DNA of 64,000 nt from a phage: sequence record MZ956763.1, one strand, 5' to 3'. Positions within the stretch are counted from its first letter, which is position 1. The number at the start of each line of letters is the position of its first letter. The notes beneath the pieces were generated by a model. That model searched no databases, was not told the origin of the DNA, and worked only from the letters and a program-made list of their open reading frames with translations. The position numbers were made by a program, and so were the translations under genes. Positions 3,153 to 57,586 of this stretch are shown here, in pieces.

Positions 3153-5852
3153 TTAGTGAACTTCCAACCAGCTCTTTCCAACTTTACCTGTGCCAGTTAC
3201 CAGTGTTTCACTCTTAAGCCCTAAGTTCTTAGAGGCTTGTCCGTAATACCAATCAGTGACAGCTTTCACCTCTGCCGTCATACTTTCTGGGCATTCCCAA
3301 CTTGTCTCGTCGTGATAGGAGCACAATAAACGAGCACCTATAGCTGGTTTGCGACCGTTTAACTTCATCAAACCTTCGTCAATCATACGACGGCAAGCGA
3401 GGTTAATTGCCTCGTTCTGAATCTGGCTTTCCGAACCCATGAGCAAATAATTCAATAACTTATGTGGAGATTTACACCACAACCAAGCTCCAGCAACCTT
3501 TACAAAACCCCCTTTAGAGATTGCAGCAGTCTTACCAAACACCTCTTCAAGTGCCTTTTTAGTCGCTTTGTAGTCAGCTTCCAAGTCATCTAGCAGTTTC
3601 TTAATTTTAGGCAAACGAATAAAGTAAGTCTGTTTAGTCAGTGCGCCTTCCTGAGTAGTTGCAGCTTTAATCGTCTTAGCAAACTTCTCATCACCTGCAC
3701 CGAACAGCAGTGCATAGATACCATTCTTAGCTTTCTTACGACCCTTGCTAATCTCATGGAGAAGGTTCTCATCCTGAGTAGCTCGACAAGTTAAGATATC
3801 CTGCTCATCATTCAAGCTAAAGTAAATGCTGTTCAATGTGTGTGCATCAGTCCCTGAATAGACAACGTAAAGGTCATTCTCAGAGTCATAGCGAAGGTAC
3901 TTATCAATCTCTGGGTTGAGGTACTCATCAAAGTGTTTGCAGTAATAGCGTCCATCTTCTTGACGAATAAACTCAATCTCTTCTTTACCTTGCGTTACCG
4001 CTTTGGTGAAGTCTTTGTCACCCATAAAGTTACAAAGAAGAACTAGCTGGGCTGAGTTCATATCTACAGAGACAACGTTAGTGCCTTCTTCACAAATCCA
4101 CACTGCCCTCATTGGTTCCCCATAGACAGCAGCACCAGACGGTACGTTTACAATACCATATTGTGTCATACGTCCAGTTGAAGTACCAAACACCATTGCA
4201 CCAGCACTAAGGCGACCATCAGGACGAATCTGGTTCAACCAACCTTTTTCATCATCCTTTGAGTTCTCAATAGTTCTGCGTCGGTGCATCAAAGTATAGT
4301 ATTTCGCAATCTTCTGTCCAAGCTCACCTTCAATCGTATCATAAGATGATTCAGTAAGTTTTGGTGAAGTACGGATTAAGCAAGGCTCAAGCAAATCTGT
4401 GTATTTCTTCACAGACCAGTTATGCTCAATGTACTGGACACCTTCGTGTTCAACATAACTCAAACCACACCGTTCCACCATCTCCTGCCACTTAGGATGT
4501 TTTGTAATCATCTTTTTGTTGTCTTTGAAACGACAAACTTTGACAGGACGACCATCCGAGTCTTTCTTGTAGTTCCAGTCATCTGGAATCCAACCAACTG
4601 ATTTCAGGTAGTCTTTAACAACTGCTACCTGAGTCATACGAGAAACTTCGAACTCAATTGGTGTATATGGTGCATCAATCAAACCTGTGTAGCGACTTGA
4701 CTCAAGTTCAAAGTGGTTAACAACATGACTGTTATAGTACTTCACAGTCTTAACTGTTTTTACTGGCTTCCAGTCTTTGCATTTCTTACCAATCTTTGCA
4801 TTCAACTCATTGCAAATTGCACGAGCATCCTTCATTGCTACAAAGCCTTCCTTGTACTCTTCACCAGTTACAGAGTTGGTTGGTGTGTAGCAATTCCGCT
4901 TTTCAATGTTAAAAATCTTTGTAGTTGGCTTACCAAATGGCTTGATTTCATATGTCTGCATCTCACCGTTACGTACCTGTTGGCGATACTTTGTCTTAGG
5001 GTACTTGGTAATTCTCTTCAGTCCATCTGCATGACCGAATGCTTCAACATACTCATTCCAAGCTTTTGCAAATTCTTCTCCAGTGACTTTACCTTTAGTC
5101 TTAATAGTTGGAGGAAGATGTGGTTCAACTTCTGAAGCAAGCTCGTTAGTCAACTTGTCAAGTTCCTTTACATGAAACTCCATAAGCTCTTTATCAGCTT
5201 TCCAACCATTGATAGCTTGTTGACTCATCCAGAAAGATGTTTCTTTAGCTCGCATGTAGGTTTCATAAGTATCTACGCCACACTTCTTTAACTTCAGATA
5301 TTCATTATCCAATGCACGTTTAGTTTTGGCGTTAATACGGATATCCTCTACAACACGAGTGAAGATTTCTGCATTCCACACACCCCAATGTTCAATCTCT
5401 GGTTTACGGACACCAACACGAGCACCCCATGCAGCCAAACCATGAGCACCTTTATAGCCCTTTGGAGTTGGTCTATCCATCCACTGAACACGAGACTGAA
5501 TAAGAGAATCCTGAAAGAAATTACTCCACGGCTTACACTTTGGATTATCAAAGTTCCACAAATCAGGTGCAATGTGATTGAAAACCCACCAGTCATACCC
5601 CAGACCATTATGGATGCAAAGTCGTTTTGCCTTTAACGCAAACTCAACACCTTCACGCAAGCCACCCTTAATGTACTTGGTATACTTGTGACCGAGGATA
5701 GGCTCATCTGTAAAGACCCATACAGGTGGCTCTTCATCGTCAGATTTATAGTCTGCGAAAGCCATTACGTGCACTTTAGTGAACTCAAGGAGTAAACCAT
5801 CAGTTTCTGTATCACCAACTAAATGTAAGTTTTTAAAATCTACGTTTTCCAT
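3153..5852 (-). CDS. DNA polymerase, family A, with 3'-5' exonuclease domain
   Basis: Exo motif VGDTETDGL near N-terminus; motif-B-like KAKNGIYALLFGAG; motif C YHDE; start set at second ATG (MENVDF) which has GAGGGAG SD; ORF track starts at 5882. Confidence 0.85.
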   Translation of the reverse strand: MENVDFKNLHLVGDTETDGLLLEFTKVHVMAFADYKSDDEEPPVWVFTDEPILGHKYTKYIKGGLREGVEFALKAKRLCIHNGLGYDWWVFNHIAPDLWNFDNPKCKPWSNFFQDSLIQSRVQWMDRPTPKGYKGAHGLAAWGARVGVRKPEIEHWGVWNAEIFTRVVEDIRINAKTKRALDNEYLKLKKCGVDTYETYMRAKETSFWMSQQAINGWKADKELMEFHVKELDKLTNELASEVEPHLPPTIKTKGKVTGEEFAKAWNEYVEAFGHADGLKRITKYPKTKYRQQVRNGEMQTYEIKPFGKPTTKIFNIEKRNCYTPTNSVTGEEYKEGFVAMKDARAICNELNAKIGKKCKDWKPVKTVKTVKYYNSHVVNHFELESSRYTGLIDAPYTPIEFEVSRMTQVAVVKDYLKSVGWIPDDWNYKKDSDGRPVKVCRFKDNKKMITKHPKWQEMVERCGLSYVEHEGVQYIEHNWSVKKYTDLLEPCLIRTSPKLTESSYDTIEGELGQKIAKYYTLMHRRRTIENSKDDEKGWLNQIRPDGRLSAGAMVFGTSTGRMTQYGIVNVPSGAAVYGEPMRAVWICEEGTNVVSVDMNSAQLVLLCNFMGDKDFTKAVTQGKEEIEFIRQEDGRYYCKHFDEYLNPEIDKYLRYDSENDLYVVYSGTDAHTLNSIYFSLNDEQDILTCRATQDENLLHEISKGRKKAKNGIYALLFGAGDEKFAKTIKAATTQEGALTKQTYFIRLPKIKKLLDDLEADYKATKKALEEVFGKTAAISKGGFVKVAGAWLWCKSPHKLLNYLLMGSESQIQNEAINLACRRMIDEGLMKLNGRKPAIGARLLCSYHDETSWECPESMTAEVKAVTDWYYGQASKNLGLKSETLVTGTGKVGKSWLEVH

Positions 5853-6109
5853 TTTTACTCCCTCTAAAATCATTAACCTCATACATTACTGCAAAAAATT
5901 ATAAAAAGCAAGTTGACAATGTGCTTGACAAGGTGTTAATCTTTGCGAAGTGGGTTTTTACTTAAAAGGTTACTTAACAGTTTAACTATACAGATACTTT
6001 AAAACTCTTAAAAGATTATTTAATAGCTTTTAAAAAGCTTTAAAGTATAACGTATAGAATACGTTAAGATAAAAGATTAAAACTTAATAGTTACTTAAAA
6101 GAGGCTTAC

Positions 6110-6532
6110 ATGCAGAAAATGTTTGTTCACCCAGACATAGCTGACTTTGTTAGAGCTTTGCAGAAGTTGGAAGAACTTGACATTGCTGCTCAACGGGAAT
6201 ATGCTCACCATCACAGGAGAATGGTTGATATACAACATGAGATAGAGTTGTCTGAAAACTATGAAGATGACTTAAAATGCTCTGTATTTGAGCATATGAA
6301 AGATGTTGCTACAGCGAGACGTAAAGCTAAAGACACAGTTGCTTTACTAGATTCTCTTAAAAAGAGGTTGCAAAGTGGTACAGACCTGTGTAATCTAGCG
6401 TCACTGATTAACGATGTTGAAACTTCTTGGGATAGACATTACTATCCACGTTCTGAAAAGACACTTGACTTTTCTTCATCAGAAAACTTAAAATGTTCTA
6501 GAAAGAAACTTAACCAACTGAGAGAGAAATAA
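6110..6532 (+). CDS. hypothetical protein
   Basis: 140 aa ORF, first gene of plus-strand block after divergent promoter region. Confidence 0.45.
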   Translation: MQKMFVHPDIADFVRALQKLEELDIAAQREYAHHHRRMVDIQHEIELSENYEDDLKCSVFEHMKDVATARRKAKDTVALLDSLKKRLQSGTDLCNLASLINDVETSWDRHYYPRSEKTLDFSSSENLKCSRKKLNQLREK

Positions 6533-53053: not shown

Positions 53054-53425
53054 ATGAAAAACAGAACAAACAAAGGCCAGTTTAAAAAAGGCCAGTCTGG
53101 AAACCCATCTGGAAGACCCAAAGGCTCTCGTAACAAAAGTTCACTCGTAAAAGCTCAACTGACCATTGATAATTCTGCTGAGTTTGCTGCAAAGTTGTTT
53201 GAGGCGATTGTTACAAGGGACGCTGCTAAGCTTGCAGAGTTCGGGTTAAACACAGATGACGTAACCATCAAGAGTATGATTGAGGTCGGTAAAACTATCT
53301 TTACTCACTCAGCAGGTGAGATGAAAGCACTTGCAGCAGACACTAAGAAGACTCCTGATAATGGTGGTCAACAACAGACAGATAACAAACCAACGTTCTC
53401 TGCTGTAGCGACTCTCAAAAAATAA
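53054..53425 (+). CDS. hypothetical protein with basic N-terminus
   Basis: 123 aa; N-terminal KGQSGNPSGRPKGSRNK. Confidence 0.45.
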   Translation: MKNRTNKGQFKKGQSGNPSGRPKGSRNKSSLVKAQLTIDNSAEFAAKLFEAIVTRDAAKLAEFGLNTDDVTIKSMIEVGKTIFTHSAGEMKALAADTKKTPDNGGQQQTDNKPTFSAVATLKK

Positions 53426-53506
53426 TTTTAAAAGGTGTTGACAGACTCTACAAAGTTACTCTAAAGTCTGTCACATCAAACAACAAATGAGAGAAGAGAG
53501 TAAAAT

Positions 53507-54922
53507 ATGAGCGAGTTATTTAAACATGCGCACCTTCATGCAGGTCGAACTGAAAATGGTGCTGTAAACCATACTTCATCAATGTCTGCTCTGGTAGACT
53601 TCTACAAAGCTGCTGGTTCAAGCCGTAGCAATGTAGAAATCTTACCAGACCTGTTCTACAAAGCTTTGCATGAGGATGTTGATGTTGCAGTTCGTATTTT
53701 ACTGCATATGCGAGATGTACGAGAAGGTATGGGTGAGCGTAAAGCCTTCAGGACTGTTTTGCTTCAAGCAATTGAAGATAAAGTTTTAGAGTCTACACAG
53801 GTTCTTCGCATTATGGATAAGATTGCAGAACTTGGTCGTTTTGATGACTTCAAAATCTTCGTAGGTACTCGCTTCGAGACAGATGCCTTCAAACATTTAG
53901 AAGCAGCATTACTAGACCCTGCAACAGCAGGTTTGGCAGCTAAGTGGTTGCCACGAGTCAAACCACGTCACAAACAGTTTGTAAAACGTTTCTGCAAGTT
54001 TGCCAACTTGAGTGAGAAAGAGTACCGCACACTGTTGTCTGCACTATCTGATACAGTTGAGCAAAAAATCTCTGCTAATGAGTTTGGCAAGATTGACTAC
54101 AGCAAGATTCCTTCACTTGCTGCTGCACGTTACCAAAAACTGTTTAACCGTAAAGATGGAGAACGCTACAAAGCTTACATTGAGTCTTTATCAAAAGGTG
54201 AGACTAAGATTAACGCTGGTGCTGTTTACCCATACGATGTGATTAAATCTGTCAAGCATGGTAATGCAGATGTTGCTAATGAGCAGTGGAAAGCACTACC
54301 AAACTGGATGGCAGAAGGTGAAAACATCTTGTGTATGACTGATGTTTCAAGCTCAATGTCTTGGGTGAATTTTGGCTCCATTACTGCTCTGGATATTGGT
54401 GTATCACTTGCATTGTATGTGGCAGAACGCAATACAGGTTGCTTTAAGAATGAGTTGATGGTTTATTCAACAAACCCTCACTTCATCGAACTTAGTGGTG
54501 ATTTACGAAACCGCCATCGTCAGGTGATGCGACATGTTGAATATGGTTCAACTAACTTACAAGCAGCTTTTGACCGTATTCTTGAGACAGGTAAAAGAAA
54601 CAACTTGACTCAGAAAGATATGCCAAGTAAGCTTATCATCTTCTCCGATATGGAGTTCAATCAGGTTGATGGAGCTAACGGTCGTACAAACTTTGAAGCA
54701 ATTCAGAGTAAGTACAAGAAAGCTGGATACGAAATGCCACAACTGGTATTCTGGTACTTAGCAAACCGTAATGGTACTTGCGAAGTGTCTGTTAAGGATA
54801 ACGGTGTAGCAATGGTATCTGGTTTCTCTCCAGCCACTTTAAAAGCTCTGCTTGGTGGTGAGAAGTTTGACCCAATCAGCGTAATGCTCAAAGCAGTAAT
54901 GATTGACCGCTATATCTGGTAA
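53507..54922 (+). CDS. vWA-domain protein, possible Ro60/TROVE-like RNA-binding protein
   Basis: 471 aa; C-terminal MIDAS-like DVSSSMS; sits immediately upstream of the tRNA/ncRNA cluster; TROVE assignment is inference. Confidence 0.4.
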   Translation: MSELFKHAHLHAGRTENGAVNHTSSMSALVDFYKAAGSSRSNVEILPDLFYKALHEDVDVAVRILLHMRDVREGMGERKAFRTVLLQAIEDKVLESTQVLRIMDKIAELGRFDDFKIFVGTRFETDAFKHLEAALLDPATAGLAAKWLPRVKPRHKQFVKRFCKFANLSEKEYRTLLSALSDTVEQKISANEFGKIDYSKIPSLAAARYQKLFNRKDGERYKAYIESLSKGETKINAGAVYPYDVIKSVKHGNADVANEQWKALPNWMAEGENILCMTDVSSSMSWVNFGSITALDIGVSLALYVAERNTGCFKNELMVYSTNPHFIELSGDLRNRHRQVMRHVEYGSTNLQAAFDRILETGKRNNLTQKDMPSKLIIFSDMEFNQVDGANGRTNFEAIQSKYKKAGYEMPQLVFWYLANRNGTCEVSVKDNGVAMVSGFSPATLKALLGGEKFDPISVMLKAVMIDRYIW

Positions 54923-54939
54923 AAAGTTTTAAAAAGGGT

Positions 54940-54968
54940 ATTGACAATGTGTTTGATACCCTTTAATA
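54940..54968 (+). promoter_or_regulatory. sigma70-like promoter upstream of tRNA cluster
   Basis: TTGACA, 17 bp, TAATAT. Confidence 0.5.
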
Positions 54969-55087
54969 TGTTCTACATAGAAACGAAACGAGAGCTTTTC
55001 TAAGATACTGAAAAATATTTTAAAAAAGTTCTTGACAATCACTAAAAAATAATGTTAAAGTGGTTACATAGAGTTTGAAAAGTTTAT

Positions 55088-55164
55088 CTCTGTTTAGCTC
55101 AGCTTGGTAGAGCGTTCCGTTTGGGGCGGTAAGGCCGGAGGTTCAAGTCCTCCAACAGAGACCA
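55088..55164 (+). tRNA. tRNA-Pro(TGG)
   Basis: manual fold: 7-bp acceptor, D-arm TAGCTCAGCTTGGTAGAGC, anticodon loop TTTGGGG, T-loop TTCAAGT, CCA encoded. Confidence 0.65.
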
Positions 55165-55171
55165 AATTAAT

Positions 55172-55249
55172 GTTCCAGTAGACAAAATGGTAAAGTCACC
55201 ACTCTTTCAAAGTGGATATCTGAGGGTTCAAATCCCTTCTGGAACGCCA
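55172..55249 (+). tRNA. tRNA-Glu(TTC)
   Basis: manual fold: acceptor GTTCCAG/CTGGAAC, anticodon stem CCACT/AGTGG, loop CTTTCAA. Confidence 0.6.
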
Positions 55250-55254
55250 GTTTT

Positions 55255-55330
55255 GACAGAAGACCAATTACAGCAAACTTAATCTTATTCATCTGAAGGT
55301 AAATCGGACAAAGAAGAGATTTGGTCTGGT
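55255..55330 (+). ncRNA. stem-loop element A of a 5-member family
   Basis: 5' CAGAAGACCAATTACAGCAA pairs with 3' TTGGTCTGG; between tRNA-Glu and tRNA-Met. Confidence 0.4.
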
Positions 55331-55340
55331 CATTAAGAAT

Positions 55341-55417
55341 TGCGGGTATAGAGAAAGGGCGTCTCACATGTCTCATTAGCATGGTATCGGCAGGTTCGAC
55401 TCCTGCACCCGCCTCCA
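55341..55417 (+). tRNA. tRNA-Met(CAT), possibly initiator (1-72 mismatch)
   Basis: anticodon stem CATGT/GCATG, loop CTCATTA; T-arm GCAGG-TTCGACT-CCTGC; position 1 unpaired. Confidence 0.5.
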
Positions 55418-55420
55418 AAT

Positions 55421-55488
55421 TTACAGAAGACCGTTTACAGCAATATTTATTAAATTTTTAGCGGAAAAATTGAAAGATACGGTCTGGT
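55421..55488 (+). ncRNA. stem-loop element B
   Basis: 5' CAGAAGACCGTTTACAGCAA, 3' ACGGTCTGG; internal hairpin AATTTTTAGCGGAAAAATT. Confidence 0.4.
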
Positions 55489-55500
55489 AATACTAAACAT

Positions 55501-55577
55501 GGTTAGGAAGCACATAAGGTATGTGCGGTCGCCTGTTAAGCGAATGGCACAGGGTTCGAATCCCTGACTAACCGCCA
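55501..55577 (+). tRNA. tRNA-Asn(GTT)
   Basis: D-stem GCAC/GTGC, anticodon loop CTGTTAA, T-loop TTCGAAT. Confidence 0.65.
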
Positions 55578-55646
55578 AATTTAGGAGAGAAGCGATTGCT
55601 CACCGATTTGTAAGGTGCAAGTCCTTAGCCTGAATAGAAATTAAAT

Positions 55647-55734
55647 GTGTCGTTATCCCGTAGATGGTAGCGGTGGGGACTGTAAATCCCTTGTCATTGA
55701 GACTCGGTAGGTTCGACTCCTACACGGCACACCA
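55647..55734 (+). tRNA. tRNA-Tyr(GTA), long variable arm
   Basis: 88 nt; anticodon stem GGGGA/TCCCT, loop CTGTAAA; acceptor GTGTCGT/ACGGCAC. Confidence 0.55.
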
Positions 55735-55739
55735 ATAAA

Positions 55740-55817
55740 GGCTATGTAGTTTAATAGGGTTAAAATACTCCCCTGTCACGGGAGATGATGTGAGTTCAAG
55801 TCTCATCGTAGCCGCCA
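55740..55817 (+). tRNA. tRNA-Asp(GTC)
   Basis: acceptor GGCTATG/CGTAGCC, anticodon stem CTCCC/GGGAG, loop CTGTCAC. Confidence 0.65.
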
Positions 55818-55902
55818 AATTATAATAAGTATTTCAAAATGATGTTTTGAGAGGGCTATTTAGCCCCTCCCTTAAAGAGTTCTTACGAGTATTCTTTAAA
55901 GG

Positions 55903-55979
55903 AGCAGAAGACCAAATACAGCAAGTTACTTAAAATTTCAAGCCAATTTAATTTTGAAAAATTTAAAACTTGGTCTGGC
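55903..55979 (+). ncRNA. stem-loop element C
   Basis: 5' CAGAAGACCAAATACAGCAA, 3' TTGGTCTGG. Confidence 0.4.
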
Positions 55980-55988
55980 TCAACAAAT

Positions 55989-56123
55989 TTACAGAAGACC
56001 GTTTACAGCAAAACTTAAACAATCTATTTCTCGGTAAAGAAAAGGAGAAGGTTCGATTCCTTCACTCGGCAGATGTCGAGTTGGTGTAATGGTAGCACTT
56101 AAGATGGTAAACAACGGTCTGGT
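55989..56123 (+). ncRNA. Y-RNA-like (YrlA-type) tRNA-mimic element D
   Basis: terminal stem AGACCGTT/AACGGTCT encloses T-arm-like GAAGG-TTCGATT-CCTTC, acceptor-like hairpin ACTCGGC-AGAT-GTCGAGT and D-arm-like GTG-TAATGGTAG-CAC, i.e. tRNA modules in permuted order with no anticodon arm. Confidence 0.45.
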
Positions 56124-56271
56124 AATTATCTTTGTAGATAAGTTATTAAGCTTACCTGTGAGTATGCGACCACAAAGGGTGAAAGGGTAAATTCTAGATT
56201 TAAACCCAAAAAGGCACATCGCTACAGACCTTAAGCAAGTCTGGGTAGCTTATCTACAAAGATAATTTAAT

Positions 56272-56347
56272 GGAAGTGTAGCAGAATGGTGATGCGGCAG
56301 ACTTTTAATCTGACAGGCGATGGGTTCGAATCCCTCCACTTCTACCA
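56272..56347 (+). tRNA. tRNA-Lys(TTT)
   Basis: anticodon loop CTTTTAA; acceptor GGAAGTG/CACTTCT; weak T-stem. Confidence 0.55.
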
Positions 56348-56430: not shown

Positions 56431-56505
56431 TGTGGGTTAGCATAAATGGTAATGCAAACGGCTGATAACCGTTAGAAGAGGGTTCGATACCCTCACCTAC
56501 AACCA
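56431..56505 (+). tRNA. tRNA-Ile(GAT)
   Basis: anticodon stem AACGG/CCGTT, loop CTGATAA; T-arm GAGGG-TTCGATA-CCCTC. Confidence 0.6.
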
Positions 56506-56520
56506 ATTTCAATAGAGTTG

Positions 56521-56549
56521 TTGACATTGAGATGTGACTACTTTATAGT
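56521..56549 (+). promoter_or_regulatory. sigma70-like promoter inside tRNA cluster
   Basis: TTGACA, 17 bp, TATAGT. Confidence 0.55.
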
Positions 56550-56842
56550 AACTAAAATACTTCACAATATGTATAATTCAAACACCAATACATGAGCGTT
56601 AGACGTAACACAATGTGGGGAAATTTGTTGTACATATTCTGAATAGTTTTCGTTGCGTAGCGTCTATTTTGCAAATTTAAAATAAATGCAAACGACAATG
56701 TTTTTCTGGCAGTAGCTTGATAGGCTAAACACCAGTGAGGTCTTCCAATCCCTCATCAAAGAATTTGGCGTACTCGCCCACGGTATGATTAATAAGGTGG
56801 GCATCTTTAAGGGCTTTCTAAGAGAGTCTTTAAAGATAATTA

Positions 56843-56924
56843 CGGGGCGTATCTCAGCGGTCTTCTAAACCGCCGTTAACCGAGTAAGTGGAGTATGCGG
56901 GTTCGAGTCCTGCCGCCTCGACCA
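56843..56924 (+). tRNA. atypical tRNA-like gene, possibly tRNA-Arg(TCT)
   Basis: good acceptor (CGGGGCG/CGCCTCG), T-arm and a perfect hairpin GCGGT-CTTCTAA-ACCGC, but no canonical D-arm and a 23-nt region before the T-arm. Confidence 0.3.
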
Positions 56925-57067
56925 ATTTAGTTAGCAGATTACTTAGACGACCTAAGCGGGTCTTCCTGTAGGGAGGTGGTCTGTATCTCATGTTTTCCAG
57001 AACATGTAAATAATCTGAGAAGGGGCTTTACAGTGTTGAGATAATACGGTAAGCTTCGAATTATAGT

Positions 57068-57150
57068 GTGGGACGATGTTAAGACTCTAAGGCATGAGCA
57101 ACGGCCTCCAAAACCGTTTCAAAGGGGTTCAACTCCTCCGTCCCATGCCA
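57068..57150 (+). tRNA. atypical tRNA-like gene, possibly tRNA-Trp(CCA)
   Basis: acceptor GTGGGAC/GTCCCAT, T-loop TTCAACT, anticodon-like loop CTCCAAA on stem ACGG/CCGT; D region about 7-8 nt too long. Confidence 0.3.
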
Positions 57151-57163
57151 AAGTCTTATTAGG

Positions 57164-57251: not shown

Positions 57252-57407
57252 CCTAATAAGATTTAAAGCCAAGCTTCATTCGGATGTCGCTTTGGTATCC
57301 CGCGTGTATTGTCGTACACACTGATAAAACACCTAGTAGGTGTCACGGAGAAGAGATAATATCAAGCTCTCCAAAGGTTCTAGTCACCGGATTAAACAAG
57401 ACTATGC

Positions 57408-57429
57408 AAAGACCTTTTTAGGTCTTTTT
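57408..57429 (+). terminator. intrinsic terminator inside tRNA cluster
   Basis: AAGACCTTTTTAGGTCTTTTT. Confidence 0.5.
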
Positions 57430-57508
57430 AGAGGGCTTCTAAGGTTATTACAGCTTGTTGTGGAACCTTGTTGCTTAGGTTCTTAGAAGTTCTCTAAAAA
57501 GATTTAAT

Positions 57509-57586
57509 GGGAGATTGACGGTAATTGGTAAACCTACCATCCTTAGAAGTTGGTGTTTGAGGGTTCGAATCCCTTGTCTCCTACCA
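57509..57586 (+). tRNA. tRNA-Leu(TAG), short variable loop
   Basis: anticodon loop CTTAGAA; A73 discriminator; T-arm GAGGG-TTCGAAT-CCCTT. Confidence 0.5.

Follow-up and report, generated by a model that had tools for sequence, protein, structure and literature searches.

A probable Ro60-Y RNA-type ribonucleoprotein module at the tRNA cluster of a Felix O1-like phage

Ro60-Y RNA particles, a major autoantigen in humans, form a conserved RNA-surveillance machine, the study of whose phage versions is only just starting. In 254 bacteria and 22 phages, YrlA RNAs, which carry a GNCGAAN0-1G motif, lie beside genes for TROVE proteins, with the Ro60 and Y RNA genes found within 4 kb of each other and on the same strand (Chen et al. 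2014, PMC4201824). The YrlA of M. smegmatis, which has a 7-bp acceptor stem, is cut by RNase P (PMC4201824). Among phages, the Ro60 of phiLo binds two Y-like RNAs (Yrl1/Yrl2) as well as the host PNPase (PMC12135203), while deletion of gp130 in phage Bas63 results in small plaques on Ppl hosts, a phenotype that is complemented (bioRxiv 10.1101/2024.10.10.617714). Here, we analyzed a 64,000-nucleotide (nt) stretch of phage DNA (sequence record MZ956763.1; hereafter, the window), which encodes a 471-aa Ro60-like protein and, downstream of it, four small unannotated elements, A to D, inside a cluster of 24 tRNAs. The locus is likely a phage Ro60-Y RNA-type ribonucleoprotein (RNP) module, as the initial annotation of this DNA had proposed from a single one of these elements. 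A to D are very probably the RNA partners of the protein, which would bind them.

The 471-aa open reading frame (ORF) is the ortholog of Felix O1 ORF42 and of gp130 of Bas63 (phage JohannRWettstein; bas63_0130, 97.9% identical), and it appears in public records under the names 'RNA-binding protein', 'vWFA protein', 'DUF2828 family protein' and 'hypothetical'. At E≤1, its only Pfam matches are DUF7788 (E 2.3e-43, residues 275-455) and DUF2828 (E 1.4e-29). PHROGs places it in phrog_850, 'RNA-binding protein'; NCBIfam returned nothing relevant, and no functional description was found in the literature on DUF2828 (PF11443). An AlphaFold2 model built on a 40-member alignment is confident (pLDDT 88, pTM 0.88) and predicts the arrangement characteristic of Ro60, namely a ring followed by a C-terminal vWA domain. 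When this model was compared with the PDB using Foldseek, the top 12 chains were all Ro60/Rsr/TROVE proteins matched over their full length (E about 1e-7), including the 2025 structures of the Ro60 of Thermus phage phiLo. The C-terminal vWA/MIDAS motif DVSSSMS, which the initial annotation had reported, is found at residues 279-285. Residues D279, S281, S283, T349 and D381 of the MIDAS are invariant across 40 homologs, and in a profile alignment with human Ro60 (hhalign; query checked against PDB 9nen_A, with a single R/K difference) DVSSSM pairs with DVSASM. The predicted structure indicates that the protein is a divergent Ro60-fold protein and a structural relative of Ro60; it is probably also an evolutionary relative.

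The protein family was detected by tblastn in 710 of 50,697 phage records (about 1.4%). Among these are records of Vibrio, Aeromonas, Campylobacter, Listeria, Staphylococcus, Enterococcus and Bacillus phages, in addition to 95 mycobacteriophage records. The mycobacteriophage homologs are full-length, share 31-33% identity with the query (E 1e-59 to 1e-76), and are named 'Ro-like RNA binding protein' by SEA-PHAGES.

Elements A to D were recognized by their shared ends. The window holds four copies of the 20-nt sequence CAGAAGACCNNNTACAGCAA, which all lie on the + strand within 55257-56011 (0.27 expected; 0 of 100 shuffles reach four), and GGTCTGG is found downstream of each copy. RNAfold gives the four elements a common frame (Table 1): a 4-bp outer helix (P1), an AGA/G internal loop, a 7-8-bp helix (P2) and the single-stranded motif UUACAGCAA, which is AUACAGCAA in C. 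In all of them, P2 opens with A-G...C-U and a G follows its 3′ strand. Elsewhere in these helices the copies differ while pairing is maintained, with double substitutions in P1 (TGAC/GTCA in A, TTAC/GTAA in B and D, GAGC/GCTC in C) and with either CCAA/TTGG or CCGT/ACGG at the inner end of P2. Similarly, P1 changes from TTAC/GTAA to TTGC/GCAA among orthologs of B, and P1 of C is GGAGC/GTTCC in Mooglevirus. The four elements are kept in the same order in the 11 Ounavirinae genomes examined (Felixounavirus, Suspvirus, Mooglevirus, Bas63). Covariation was assessed using 21 distinct termini from 11 Ounavirinae genomes, picked by invariant anchors and not by pairing. All 231 of 231 cells pair, and changes on both sides are seen in 42, compared to 15.5 in shuffles (0 of 500 reach 42); pairing in slid registers, used as a control, is 21-45%. 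The scaffold of A to D belongs to no Rfam family.

The positions of the elements also follow a pattern. Their starts are 332 to 1,067 nt downstream of the 471-aa ORF and on the same strand, D being the farthest, which agrees with the distance of about 1 kb given in the initial annotation and is well within the range of about 4 kb that is characteristic of YrlA genes. Element A begins 5 nt after the end of tRNA-Glu (55249) and ends 9 nt before the start of tRNA-Met (55341); B begins 4 nt after the end of tRNA-Met (55417) and ends 11 nt before the start of tRNA-Asn (55501). The tRNAs of the first block of the cluster also bracket C and D.

The elements differ in their cargo, which consists of small variable hairpins in A, B and C, and of a tRNA-like module in D only. 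The initial annotation had described D alone, at 55989-56123, as a YrlA-like RNA; the element is real, but it extends to 56125 through its outer helix and is one of four. The terminal stem, T arm, closed acceptor-like hairpin and D arm that had been described are all in place, as is their permuted order with the anticodon arm absent, and RNAfold yields this architecture unaided when run without constraints on 55987-56129 (minimum free energy (MFE) -36.4 kcal/mol, z -3.39, a stability that none of 200 shuffles reaches). The cargo of D corresponds to a circularly permuted top half of a tRNA: V, T arm, a loop-closed 7-bp acceptor stem, U8 and the D arm. U8, G9 and a 4-bp D stem (GUGU-AAUGGUA-GCAC) occupy 56082-56099, with A14, G18, G19 and A21 present. 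Read as a tRNA, the acceptor stem is GUCGAGU/ACUCGGC with one G-U pair, closed by AGAU, of which the A stands at the discriminator position. Sequence and fold thus give D the module order of YrlA together with tRNA-invariant nucleotides. Among D orthologs, 95.6% of cells are paired and the closing stem covaries; the acceptor-like stem is 100% paired with compensatory changes in three of its seven pairs, its variants across genera being ACUCGGC/GUCGAGU, ACACGU/GCGUGU and ACCCUUC/GAAGGGU. Of the 253 phage records in which D is conserved, none annotates it as RNA. Since conservation in so many records is accompanied by compensatory acceptor-stem changes, D is under selection.

Table 1. Positions of the features of the window and of related features at other loci (L numbers) that encode the protein family.
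Feature	Sequence	Position	Strand	Details	Basis
Ro60-like protein gene, 471 aa	window	53507..54922	+	N-terminal helical-repeat ring (DUF2828), C-terminal vWA with MIDAS (DUF7788)	ORF, Pfam, fold
Second promoter-like site	window	54941-54969	+		consensus scan only
Promoter-like site	window	55032..55061	+	TTGACA, 18 nt, TAAAGT, with TG; upstream of tRNA-Pro	consensus scan only
First block of the 24-tRNA cluster	window	55088..56347	+	Pro, Glu, Met, Asn, Tyr, Asp ... Lys	ARAGORN, Rfam tRNA matches
Element A, short Y-like RNA	window	55254..55332	+	between tRNA-Glu and tRNA-Met	
A, P1	window	55254-55257 with 55329-55332		TGAC with GTCA; AGA/G internal loop	
A, P2	window	55261-55267 with 55321-55327		AGACCAA with TTGGTCT	
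A, motif	window	55268-55276		UUACAGCAA; variable hairpin mid-element	
Element B, short Y-like RNA	window	55421..55490	+	between tRNA-Met and tRNA-Asn	
B, P1	window	55421-55424 with 55487-55490		TTAC with GTAA	
B, P2	window	55428-55434 with 55479-55485		AGACCGT with ACGGTCT	
B, motif	window	55435-55443		UUACAGCAA	
Element C, short Y-like RNA	window	55902..55981	+		
C, P1	window	55902-55905 with 55978-55981		GAGC with GCTC	
C, P2	window	55909-55915 with 55970-55976		AGACCAA with TTGGTCT	
C, motif	window	55916-55924		AUACAGCAA	
Element D, scaffold with tRNA-like module	window	55989..56125	+		fold, ortholog alignment
D, outer helix P1	window	55989-55992 with 56122-56125	+	TTAC with GTAA; closes across AGA/G internal loop	
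D, terminal stem P2	window	55996-56003 with 56113-56120	+	AGACCGTT with AACGGTCT	
D, motif	window	56004-56011	+	UACAGCAA	
D, V hairpin	window	56023-56046	+		
D, T arm	window	56047-56063	+	GAAGG-TTCGATT-CCTTC (T loop UUCGAUU)	
D, closed 7-bp acceptor-like hairpin	window	56064-56081	+	ACTCGGC-AGAT-GTCGAGT	
D, D arm	window	56083-56099	+		
ROOL RNA, scaffolds, RtcB-like ligase neighbourhood	Listeria phage LP-064 (L011)	929-1480, 2119-2388, 5313-6458			
GAACCUUUCUGGAGGGGAAAGCAAAAACUCGCCAAAA inserts	L019, L021, L026, L027, L042	L019 2272-2374; L021 2733-2840; L026 145-284; L027 1261-1377; L042 2730-2832			
Mini-scaffolds	L019, L026, L027, L070, L042, L007	L019 2950-2990; L026 1760-1799; L027 2855-2894; L070 2903-2947; L042 2946-2989; L007 2460-2510			

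The scaffold is linked to the protein family well beyond the Felix O1 lineage. Using a fixed-frame search pattern (7-bp stem, 3-nt linker, CAGCAA), the scaffold was found beside the homologous gene and on its strand in mycobacteriophage LeBron (three copies), Yersinia phage P778 and Aeromonas phage LAh_6, which has at least seven tandem copies upstream of the gene. It has the same position and strand in Cronobacter phage S13, Campylobacter phage F374, Listeria phage LP-064 and a Staphylococcus phage. The search was extended to IMG/VR, from which 80 family-encoding loci were taken; 75 of these show only 38-48% identity to the query. On the + strand of the 75 non-Felix loci, a perfect in-frame 7-bp partner is present for 92 of 274 CAGCAA sites, compared to 33 expected by shuffling; on the - strand, 20 of 163 sites are partnered and 21 are expected (Fisher p 4.7e-7 between strands).

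A covariance model, R1, was then built from a MAFFT alignment of 47 diverse short elements. This alignment has no gaps at either end; neither CAGCAA nor the G that follows the 3′ strand varies, and at least 90% of the elements have G-C as their second stem pair. Searching both strands of 83 family-encoding loci (589 kb), R1 gives 90 matches at E≤1, of which about 40 are seed sequences and about 50 are not. All but one (89/90) share the strand of the gene, clustering either upstream or downstream of it at a distance of a few hundred nt at most. In the window, R1 recognizes only A (43.0 bits), B (50.4 bits), C (42.2 bits) and the 5′ half of D. At many loci a tRNA-like module is enclosed in the same scaffold, and four of these give sub-threshold YrlA matches (36.7, 28.7, 26.7 and 24.7 bits). 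The coupling of this protein-sized recognition signature, which the elements share, to the protein family is strict at the genomic level.

These data bear directly on the possibility that the elements belong to the tRNA operon and act in cis, for example, as processing signals, spacers guiding RNase E, III or P, or stabilising hairpins, and have nothing specific to do with the Ro60-like protein. It is true that all four elements of the window are in tRNA spacers, a few nt from tRNA ends, and that family-encoding loci are often tRNA-rich. However, in the LeBron, Staphylococcus, Listeria and Campylobacter phages the elements adjoin the gene and not tRNAs, and R1 is empty in the other ~20 tRNA spacers of the window. 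A negative control is provided by Erwinia phage vB_EamM-EAP4 (Kolesnikvirus, OR185440.1), which belongs to the same subfamily. It retains both a syntenic DUF5681 gene (60% identity) and a cluster of 27 tRNAs; a homolog of the Ro-like protein was not found in it (best tblastn E 0.29), and R1 has no match across its 86 kb. Because it is without both the Ro-like gene and the scaffold elements, EAP4 serves as a natural 'knock-out' comparison, in which the scaffold goes with the protein family and not with tRNAs. We consider a purely cis-acting role improbable.

About equally improbable is that the RNAs are real but have another partner, such as a host RNA chaperone or base-pairing targets, with the protein acting alone, e.g. 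by blocking Ppl through its vWA/MIDAS. The Ppl counter, which is the sole functional datum, concerns the protein alone, and the proven binder of the similar Class I RNAs of Dictyostelium (see below) is an RRM protein, Rnp1A (PMC7919456). Against this, co-localisation, a shared strand and co-absence across distant phages reproduce the pattern of Ro60 and Y RNA genes (PMC4201824), and the tRNA-like versions of the scaffold overlap weak YrlA matches.

We give even less credence to the idea of D as a tRNA gene that has been circularly permuted or has decayed (a pseudogene or a split-tRNA precursor), with A to C as unrelated repeats. D does have textbook T and D arms, U8, A14, G18G19, a 7-bp acceptor stem and a discriminator A, it lies within a tRNA cluster, and some records call neighbouring genes tRNA-OTHER or pseudo. 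Nevertheless, it is called neither by ARAGORN nor by the Rfam tRNA model, Rfam seeing the T arm only (12.4 bits), and it has no anticodon arm. Moreover, the selection on D noted above, the P1, P2 and motif that it has in common with A to C, and the recurrence of the scaffold-plus-tRNA-like design in unrelated phages all speak against such an origin. Just as remote is a role of the repeats as DNA (regulator sites, recombination or homing-endonuclease targets, or mobile repeats resembling miniature inverted-repeat transposable elements), which would suit the four copies with near-identical 20-nt ends, the HNH homing endonucleases in this tRNA region of Felix O1 and the promoter-overlapping inverted repeats nearby, but not the 89:1 strand bias relative to the gene, hard to explain for symmetric DNA sites, nor the tolerance of G-U pairs, the double substitutions that maintain pairing, the conservation of the single-stranded motif on one strand only and the completely different interiors of the copies.

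Several results weigh against a Ro60-Y RNA-type module. With respect to the Ro60/TROVE assignment made in the initial annotation, the ring/vWA fold, the MIDAS and the Foldseek matches uphold the Ro60 part, but the TROVE profile (Pfam PF05731) finds no match in the protein at E≤1. Neither a phmmer search with the single sequence nor an hmmsearch with the 40-member profile retrieves any chain from the PDB, Ro60 included, and the hhalign alignment with human Ro60 covers the vWA part only, at 44% probability. The likening of D to YrlA stands for module order and location, but not for sequence: in searches of 5.4 kb and of 166 nt alike, the Rfam YrlA model fails to match D at E≤10, the GNCGAAN0-1G motif is absent, and there is no CGAA in the 5′ part of A to D. 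A further 'anticodon-stem-like' helix of D, P3, drawn by RNAfold, was rejected as a conserved feature, being broken in Suspvirus and Mooglevirus. What joins the protein to A to D is gene-RNA linkage alone, and the model put forward in the Bas63 preprint, in which gp130 inhibits a putative DNA-degrading system, has no obvious need for RNA (10.1101/2024.10.10.617714).

In a Ro60-Y RNA-type module, A to D would be transcribed together with the tRNAs from the promoter-like sites upstream of the cluster (Table 1). RNase P cleavage and 3′ trimming of the flanking tRNAs could release them from the polycistron, since tRNA ends adjoin A and B and bracket C and D. The protein may then bind the conserved stem base and CAGCAA, as Ro60 binds the conserved helix of Y RNAs, leaving the variable modules to act as adaptors or gates. 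By mimicking the top half of a tRNA, the D module might recruit or decoy host factors that recognise tRNAs; candidates include modification enzymes, RNase P or the CCA enzyme, exonucleases such as PNPase, and tRNA-targeting defence nucleases. Cleavage of D by RNase P within its AGAU loop is plausible by analogy with M. smegmatis YrlA, given its 7-bp stem and discriminator A. The RNP may contribute to the reported anti-defence phenotype of the Bas63 ortholog, which counters Ppl.

With respect to the wider locus, the 4-kb region around the Ro60-like gene is 95-97% identical to Felix O1, a Salmonella phage, and to ~250 other Felixounavirus genomes, and the gene order is DUF5681 gene, 471-aa ORF and tRNA cluster. 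The DUF5681 gene (53054-53425) was considered as a part of the module and rejected because the Erwinia phage retains it without the Ro-like gene and the RNAs. The two promoter-like sites are sigma-70-like candidates by consensus, and likely mark the start of the tRNA/Y-like RNA polycistron; this assignment is weak because the number of such sites in the scan shows no excess over the shuffle expectation. Inverted repeats of 8 bp (GACAGACT...AGTCTGTC, 53440-53477) and 12 bp (AAAGGGTATTGA...TGATACCCTTT, 54933-54964), both on the + strand, extend over the -35 regions of the promoter-like sites that precede the Ro-like gene and the tRNA cluster, respectively, and may be operators or terminator-promoter combinations.

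Between D and tRNA-Lys, 145 nt (56124-56268, + strand) form a multi-branched fold that a 24-bp helix closes (MFE -48.3 kcal/mol, z -5.25; none of 200 shuffles is as stable), and have no Rfam match and no RNA annotation. A 76-aa minus-strand ORF (55989-56219) lies exactly over D and this following hairpin. ORFs over the equivalents of D are annotated as hypothetical in Bas63 (bas63_0137/0138) and in other records, the small minus-strand bas63_0138 being the one over the equivalent of the 145-nt segment. These small ORFs are probably spurious calls on RNA genes. Further along the + strand of the cluster, two long tRNA-free spacers (56506-57163 and 57254-57508) contain weak Rfam matches: two to transfer-messenger RNA (tmRNA) (56843-56924, 22.1 bits; 56652-56841), one to permuted tmRNA (56448-56720, 25.6 bits) and one to tRNA-Sec (57070-57144, 23 bits), along with a strong hairpin at 57414-57513. 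These spacers may hold decayed tRNAs or further non-coding RNAs.

The scaffold has other surroundings and contents in other phages. In Listeria phage LP-064, three CAGCAA scaffolds are directly upstream of the Ro-like gene, a ROOL RNA (87.4 bits vs. a gathering score of 99.1) is ~1 kb upstream and an RtcB-like tRNA ligase is downstream, so that the locus looks like an RNA-repair/RNP neighbourhood. The CAGCAA scaffold of one locus (L062, 2730-2837) encloses a tRNA that is complete and not permuted (Rfam 52.9 bits, 2753-2824), so the scaffold can hold whole tRNAs besides permuted modules. Several uncultivated phages have a second recurrent insert in the variable region, GAACCUUUCUGGAGGGGAAAGCAAAAACUCGCCAAAA, which represents a second kind of cargo module. 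Mini-scaffolds of ~40 nt, consisting of stem, CAGCAA, short loop and stem, are found 10-50 nt before the Ro-like start codon in several phages, where they might serve in the mRNA leader as binding sites for autoregulation. Finally, two annotated 'tRNAs' of Cronobacter phage S13 (L009, 4395-4637) are oversized at 121 and 113 nt, lie directly upstream of a tRNA-like CAGCAA scaffold (4654-4788), and probably contain an intron or insert.

Taken together, an RNA scaffold that is absent from Rfam marks a protein family of about 1.4% of sequenced phages, and is modular, its contents being hairpins, tRNA mimics, whole tRNAs or other inserts. Of the system, the protein has already been published on, whereas the RNAs, their family-wide linkage to the gene and their resemblance to Class I RNAs are new as far as literature searches show. 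Concrete candidate RNA partners are now named for a Ro60-like protein with a genetic phenotype (anti-Ppl, Bas63), so the mechanism can be tested directly in a tractable E. coli/Salmonella phage. The small ORFs placed over these RNAs in many phage records are exposed as probable mis-annotations.

Of the known RNAs, those closest to the scaffold in signature are the Class I RNAs of Dictyostelium, for which, to our knowledge, the mechanism has been unknown since 2004. Class I RNAs have a 6-bp stem joining the 5′ and 3′ ends with compensatory changes, start with AAG, end with CUGU, and contain an 11-nt motif in which T3, C6, C9, A10 and A11 are invariant; they are reported to have been found in no organism outside Dictyostelia, and their single proven binder is the RRM protein Rnp1A, three other pulled-down proteins being left unnamed (Kjellin et al. 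2021, PMC7919456). In all Rfam scans, Dictyostelium Class I RNA (RF01414; consensus GaUcuC-CUUACAGCAA-...-GagAuC-UG) is the only non-tRNA family that repeatedly matches the phage elements. A scores 19.7 bits and B 20.1 bits, and Aeromonas phage LAh_6 has seven tandem + strand matches of 19-30 bits (best 29.6) within the 1.1 kb upstream of the gene. The gathering score of 41.5 bits is reached by no phage element, including those in a scan of the 20 best loci.

The phage scaffold fits the published description of Class I RNAs nearly point for point. Both are about 55-65 nt long, start with AAG, end with CUG(U), and have a 6-7-bp stem between their ends that varies by compensatory change and has a conserved G-C pair near its base. 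In both, the motif (C)CUUACAGCAA with the T3, C6, C9, A10, A11 pattern directly follows the 5′ strand, and the interior is variable and A-rich. The stem is borne out by the 47-element alignment and by covariation, the Felix-lineage copies ending in CUGG plus the outer helix; the motif is nnUUACAGCAA in A, B and D, and AAAUACAGCAA, without T3, in C. Unlike Class I RNAs, the phage elements stay below 41.5 bits and have no DUSE promoter, which is about 60 nt upstream in Class I, and the Class I host is a eukaryote with an RRM protein as the only proven binder. Motif searches in a partial D. discoideum proteome (Kjellin supplement) gave nothing relevant. Papers mentioning DUF2828 place the domain in plants and mimivirus-like sequences; by this literature, DUF2828 proteins occur in eukaryotes and giant viruses. 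We tentatively raise the possibility, itself rather doubtful, that the stem-UUACAGCAA-variable-stem-CUG scaffold is the 'Y RNA' of the whole DUF2828 Ro60-like branch and that Class I RNAs are of the same class. If true, Class I RNAs would act as Ro60-like RNP partners or adaptors, and would gain both a candidate partner among proteins and a connection through evolution with the RNP systems of phages and viruses. For an RNA class that has been an orphan for 20 years, the near-identity of the two signatures provides a hypothesis that can be tested.

In mycobacteriophage LeBron, gp53 is a full-length homolog with three CAGCAA scaffolds immediately downstream, the middle one of which is flanked by two short ones, is tRNA-like and coincides with a sub-threshold Rfam YrlA match (39.8 bits, E 5e-6) 125 nt downstream of the gene. 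Unlike in the window, there is no adjacent tRNA cluster, and the closing stems are GC-richer and without the Felix-type outer helix. With respect to Bas63, for which the idea that 'some tRNA genes ... are possibly Y RNAs' was no more than a speculation of the authors (10.1101/2024.10.10.617714), our candidates are four unannotated spacer elements and not annotated tRNAs; in Bas63 itself, one of these is overlain by the probably spurious ORF bas63_0137.

Finally, the locus differs from Ro60-YrlA systems in that the protein is assigned by Pfam to DUF2828/DUF7788 and not to TROVE, and in that the conserved motif of the RNAs is UUACAGCAA after the stem and not GNCGAAN0-1G or CGAA within it. The scaffold-embedded tRNA-like relatives score 24.7-39.8 bits against a YrlA threshold of 69. 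Furthermore, the RNAs are embedded in a tRNA operon, are four in number and, in the Felix lineage, have an extra outer helix. As the system falls short of the thresholds of all three sequence models, we do not file it under TROVE, YrlA or Class I. At the same time, it has in common with Ro60-YrlA/YrlB (RF02553) and with phiLo a ring plus vWA/MIDAS protein and several small RNAs within about 1-2 kb on the same strand. As in Ro60-Y RNAs, each phage RNA has a closing stem formed by its 5′ and 3′ termini, along with a conserved motif on the 5′ side. As in the YrlA/YrlB pair, one RNA per genome is tRNA-like, with V, T arm, closed acceptor stem and D arm, while the others are shorter, and the 7-bp acceptor stem of D resembles that of M. 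smegmatis YrlA. With regard to fold and architecture, the reading of the system as an RNA variant of the known Ro60-Y RNA kind is thus supported.

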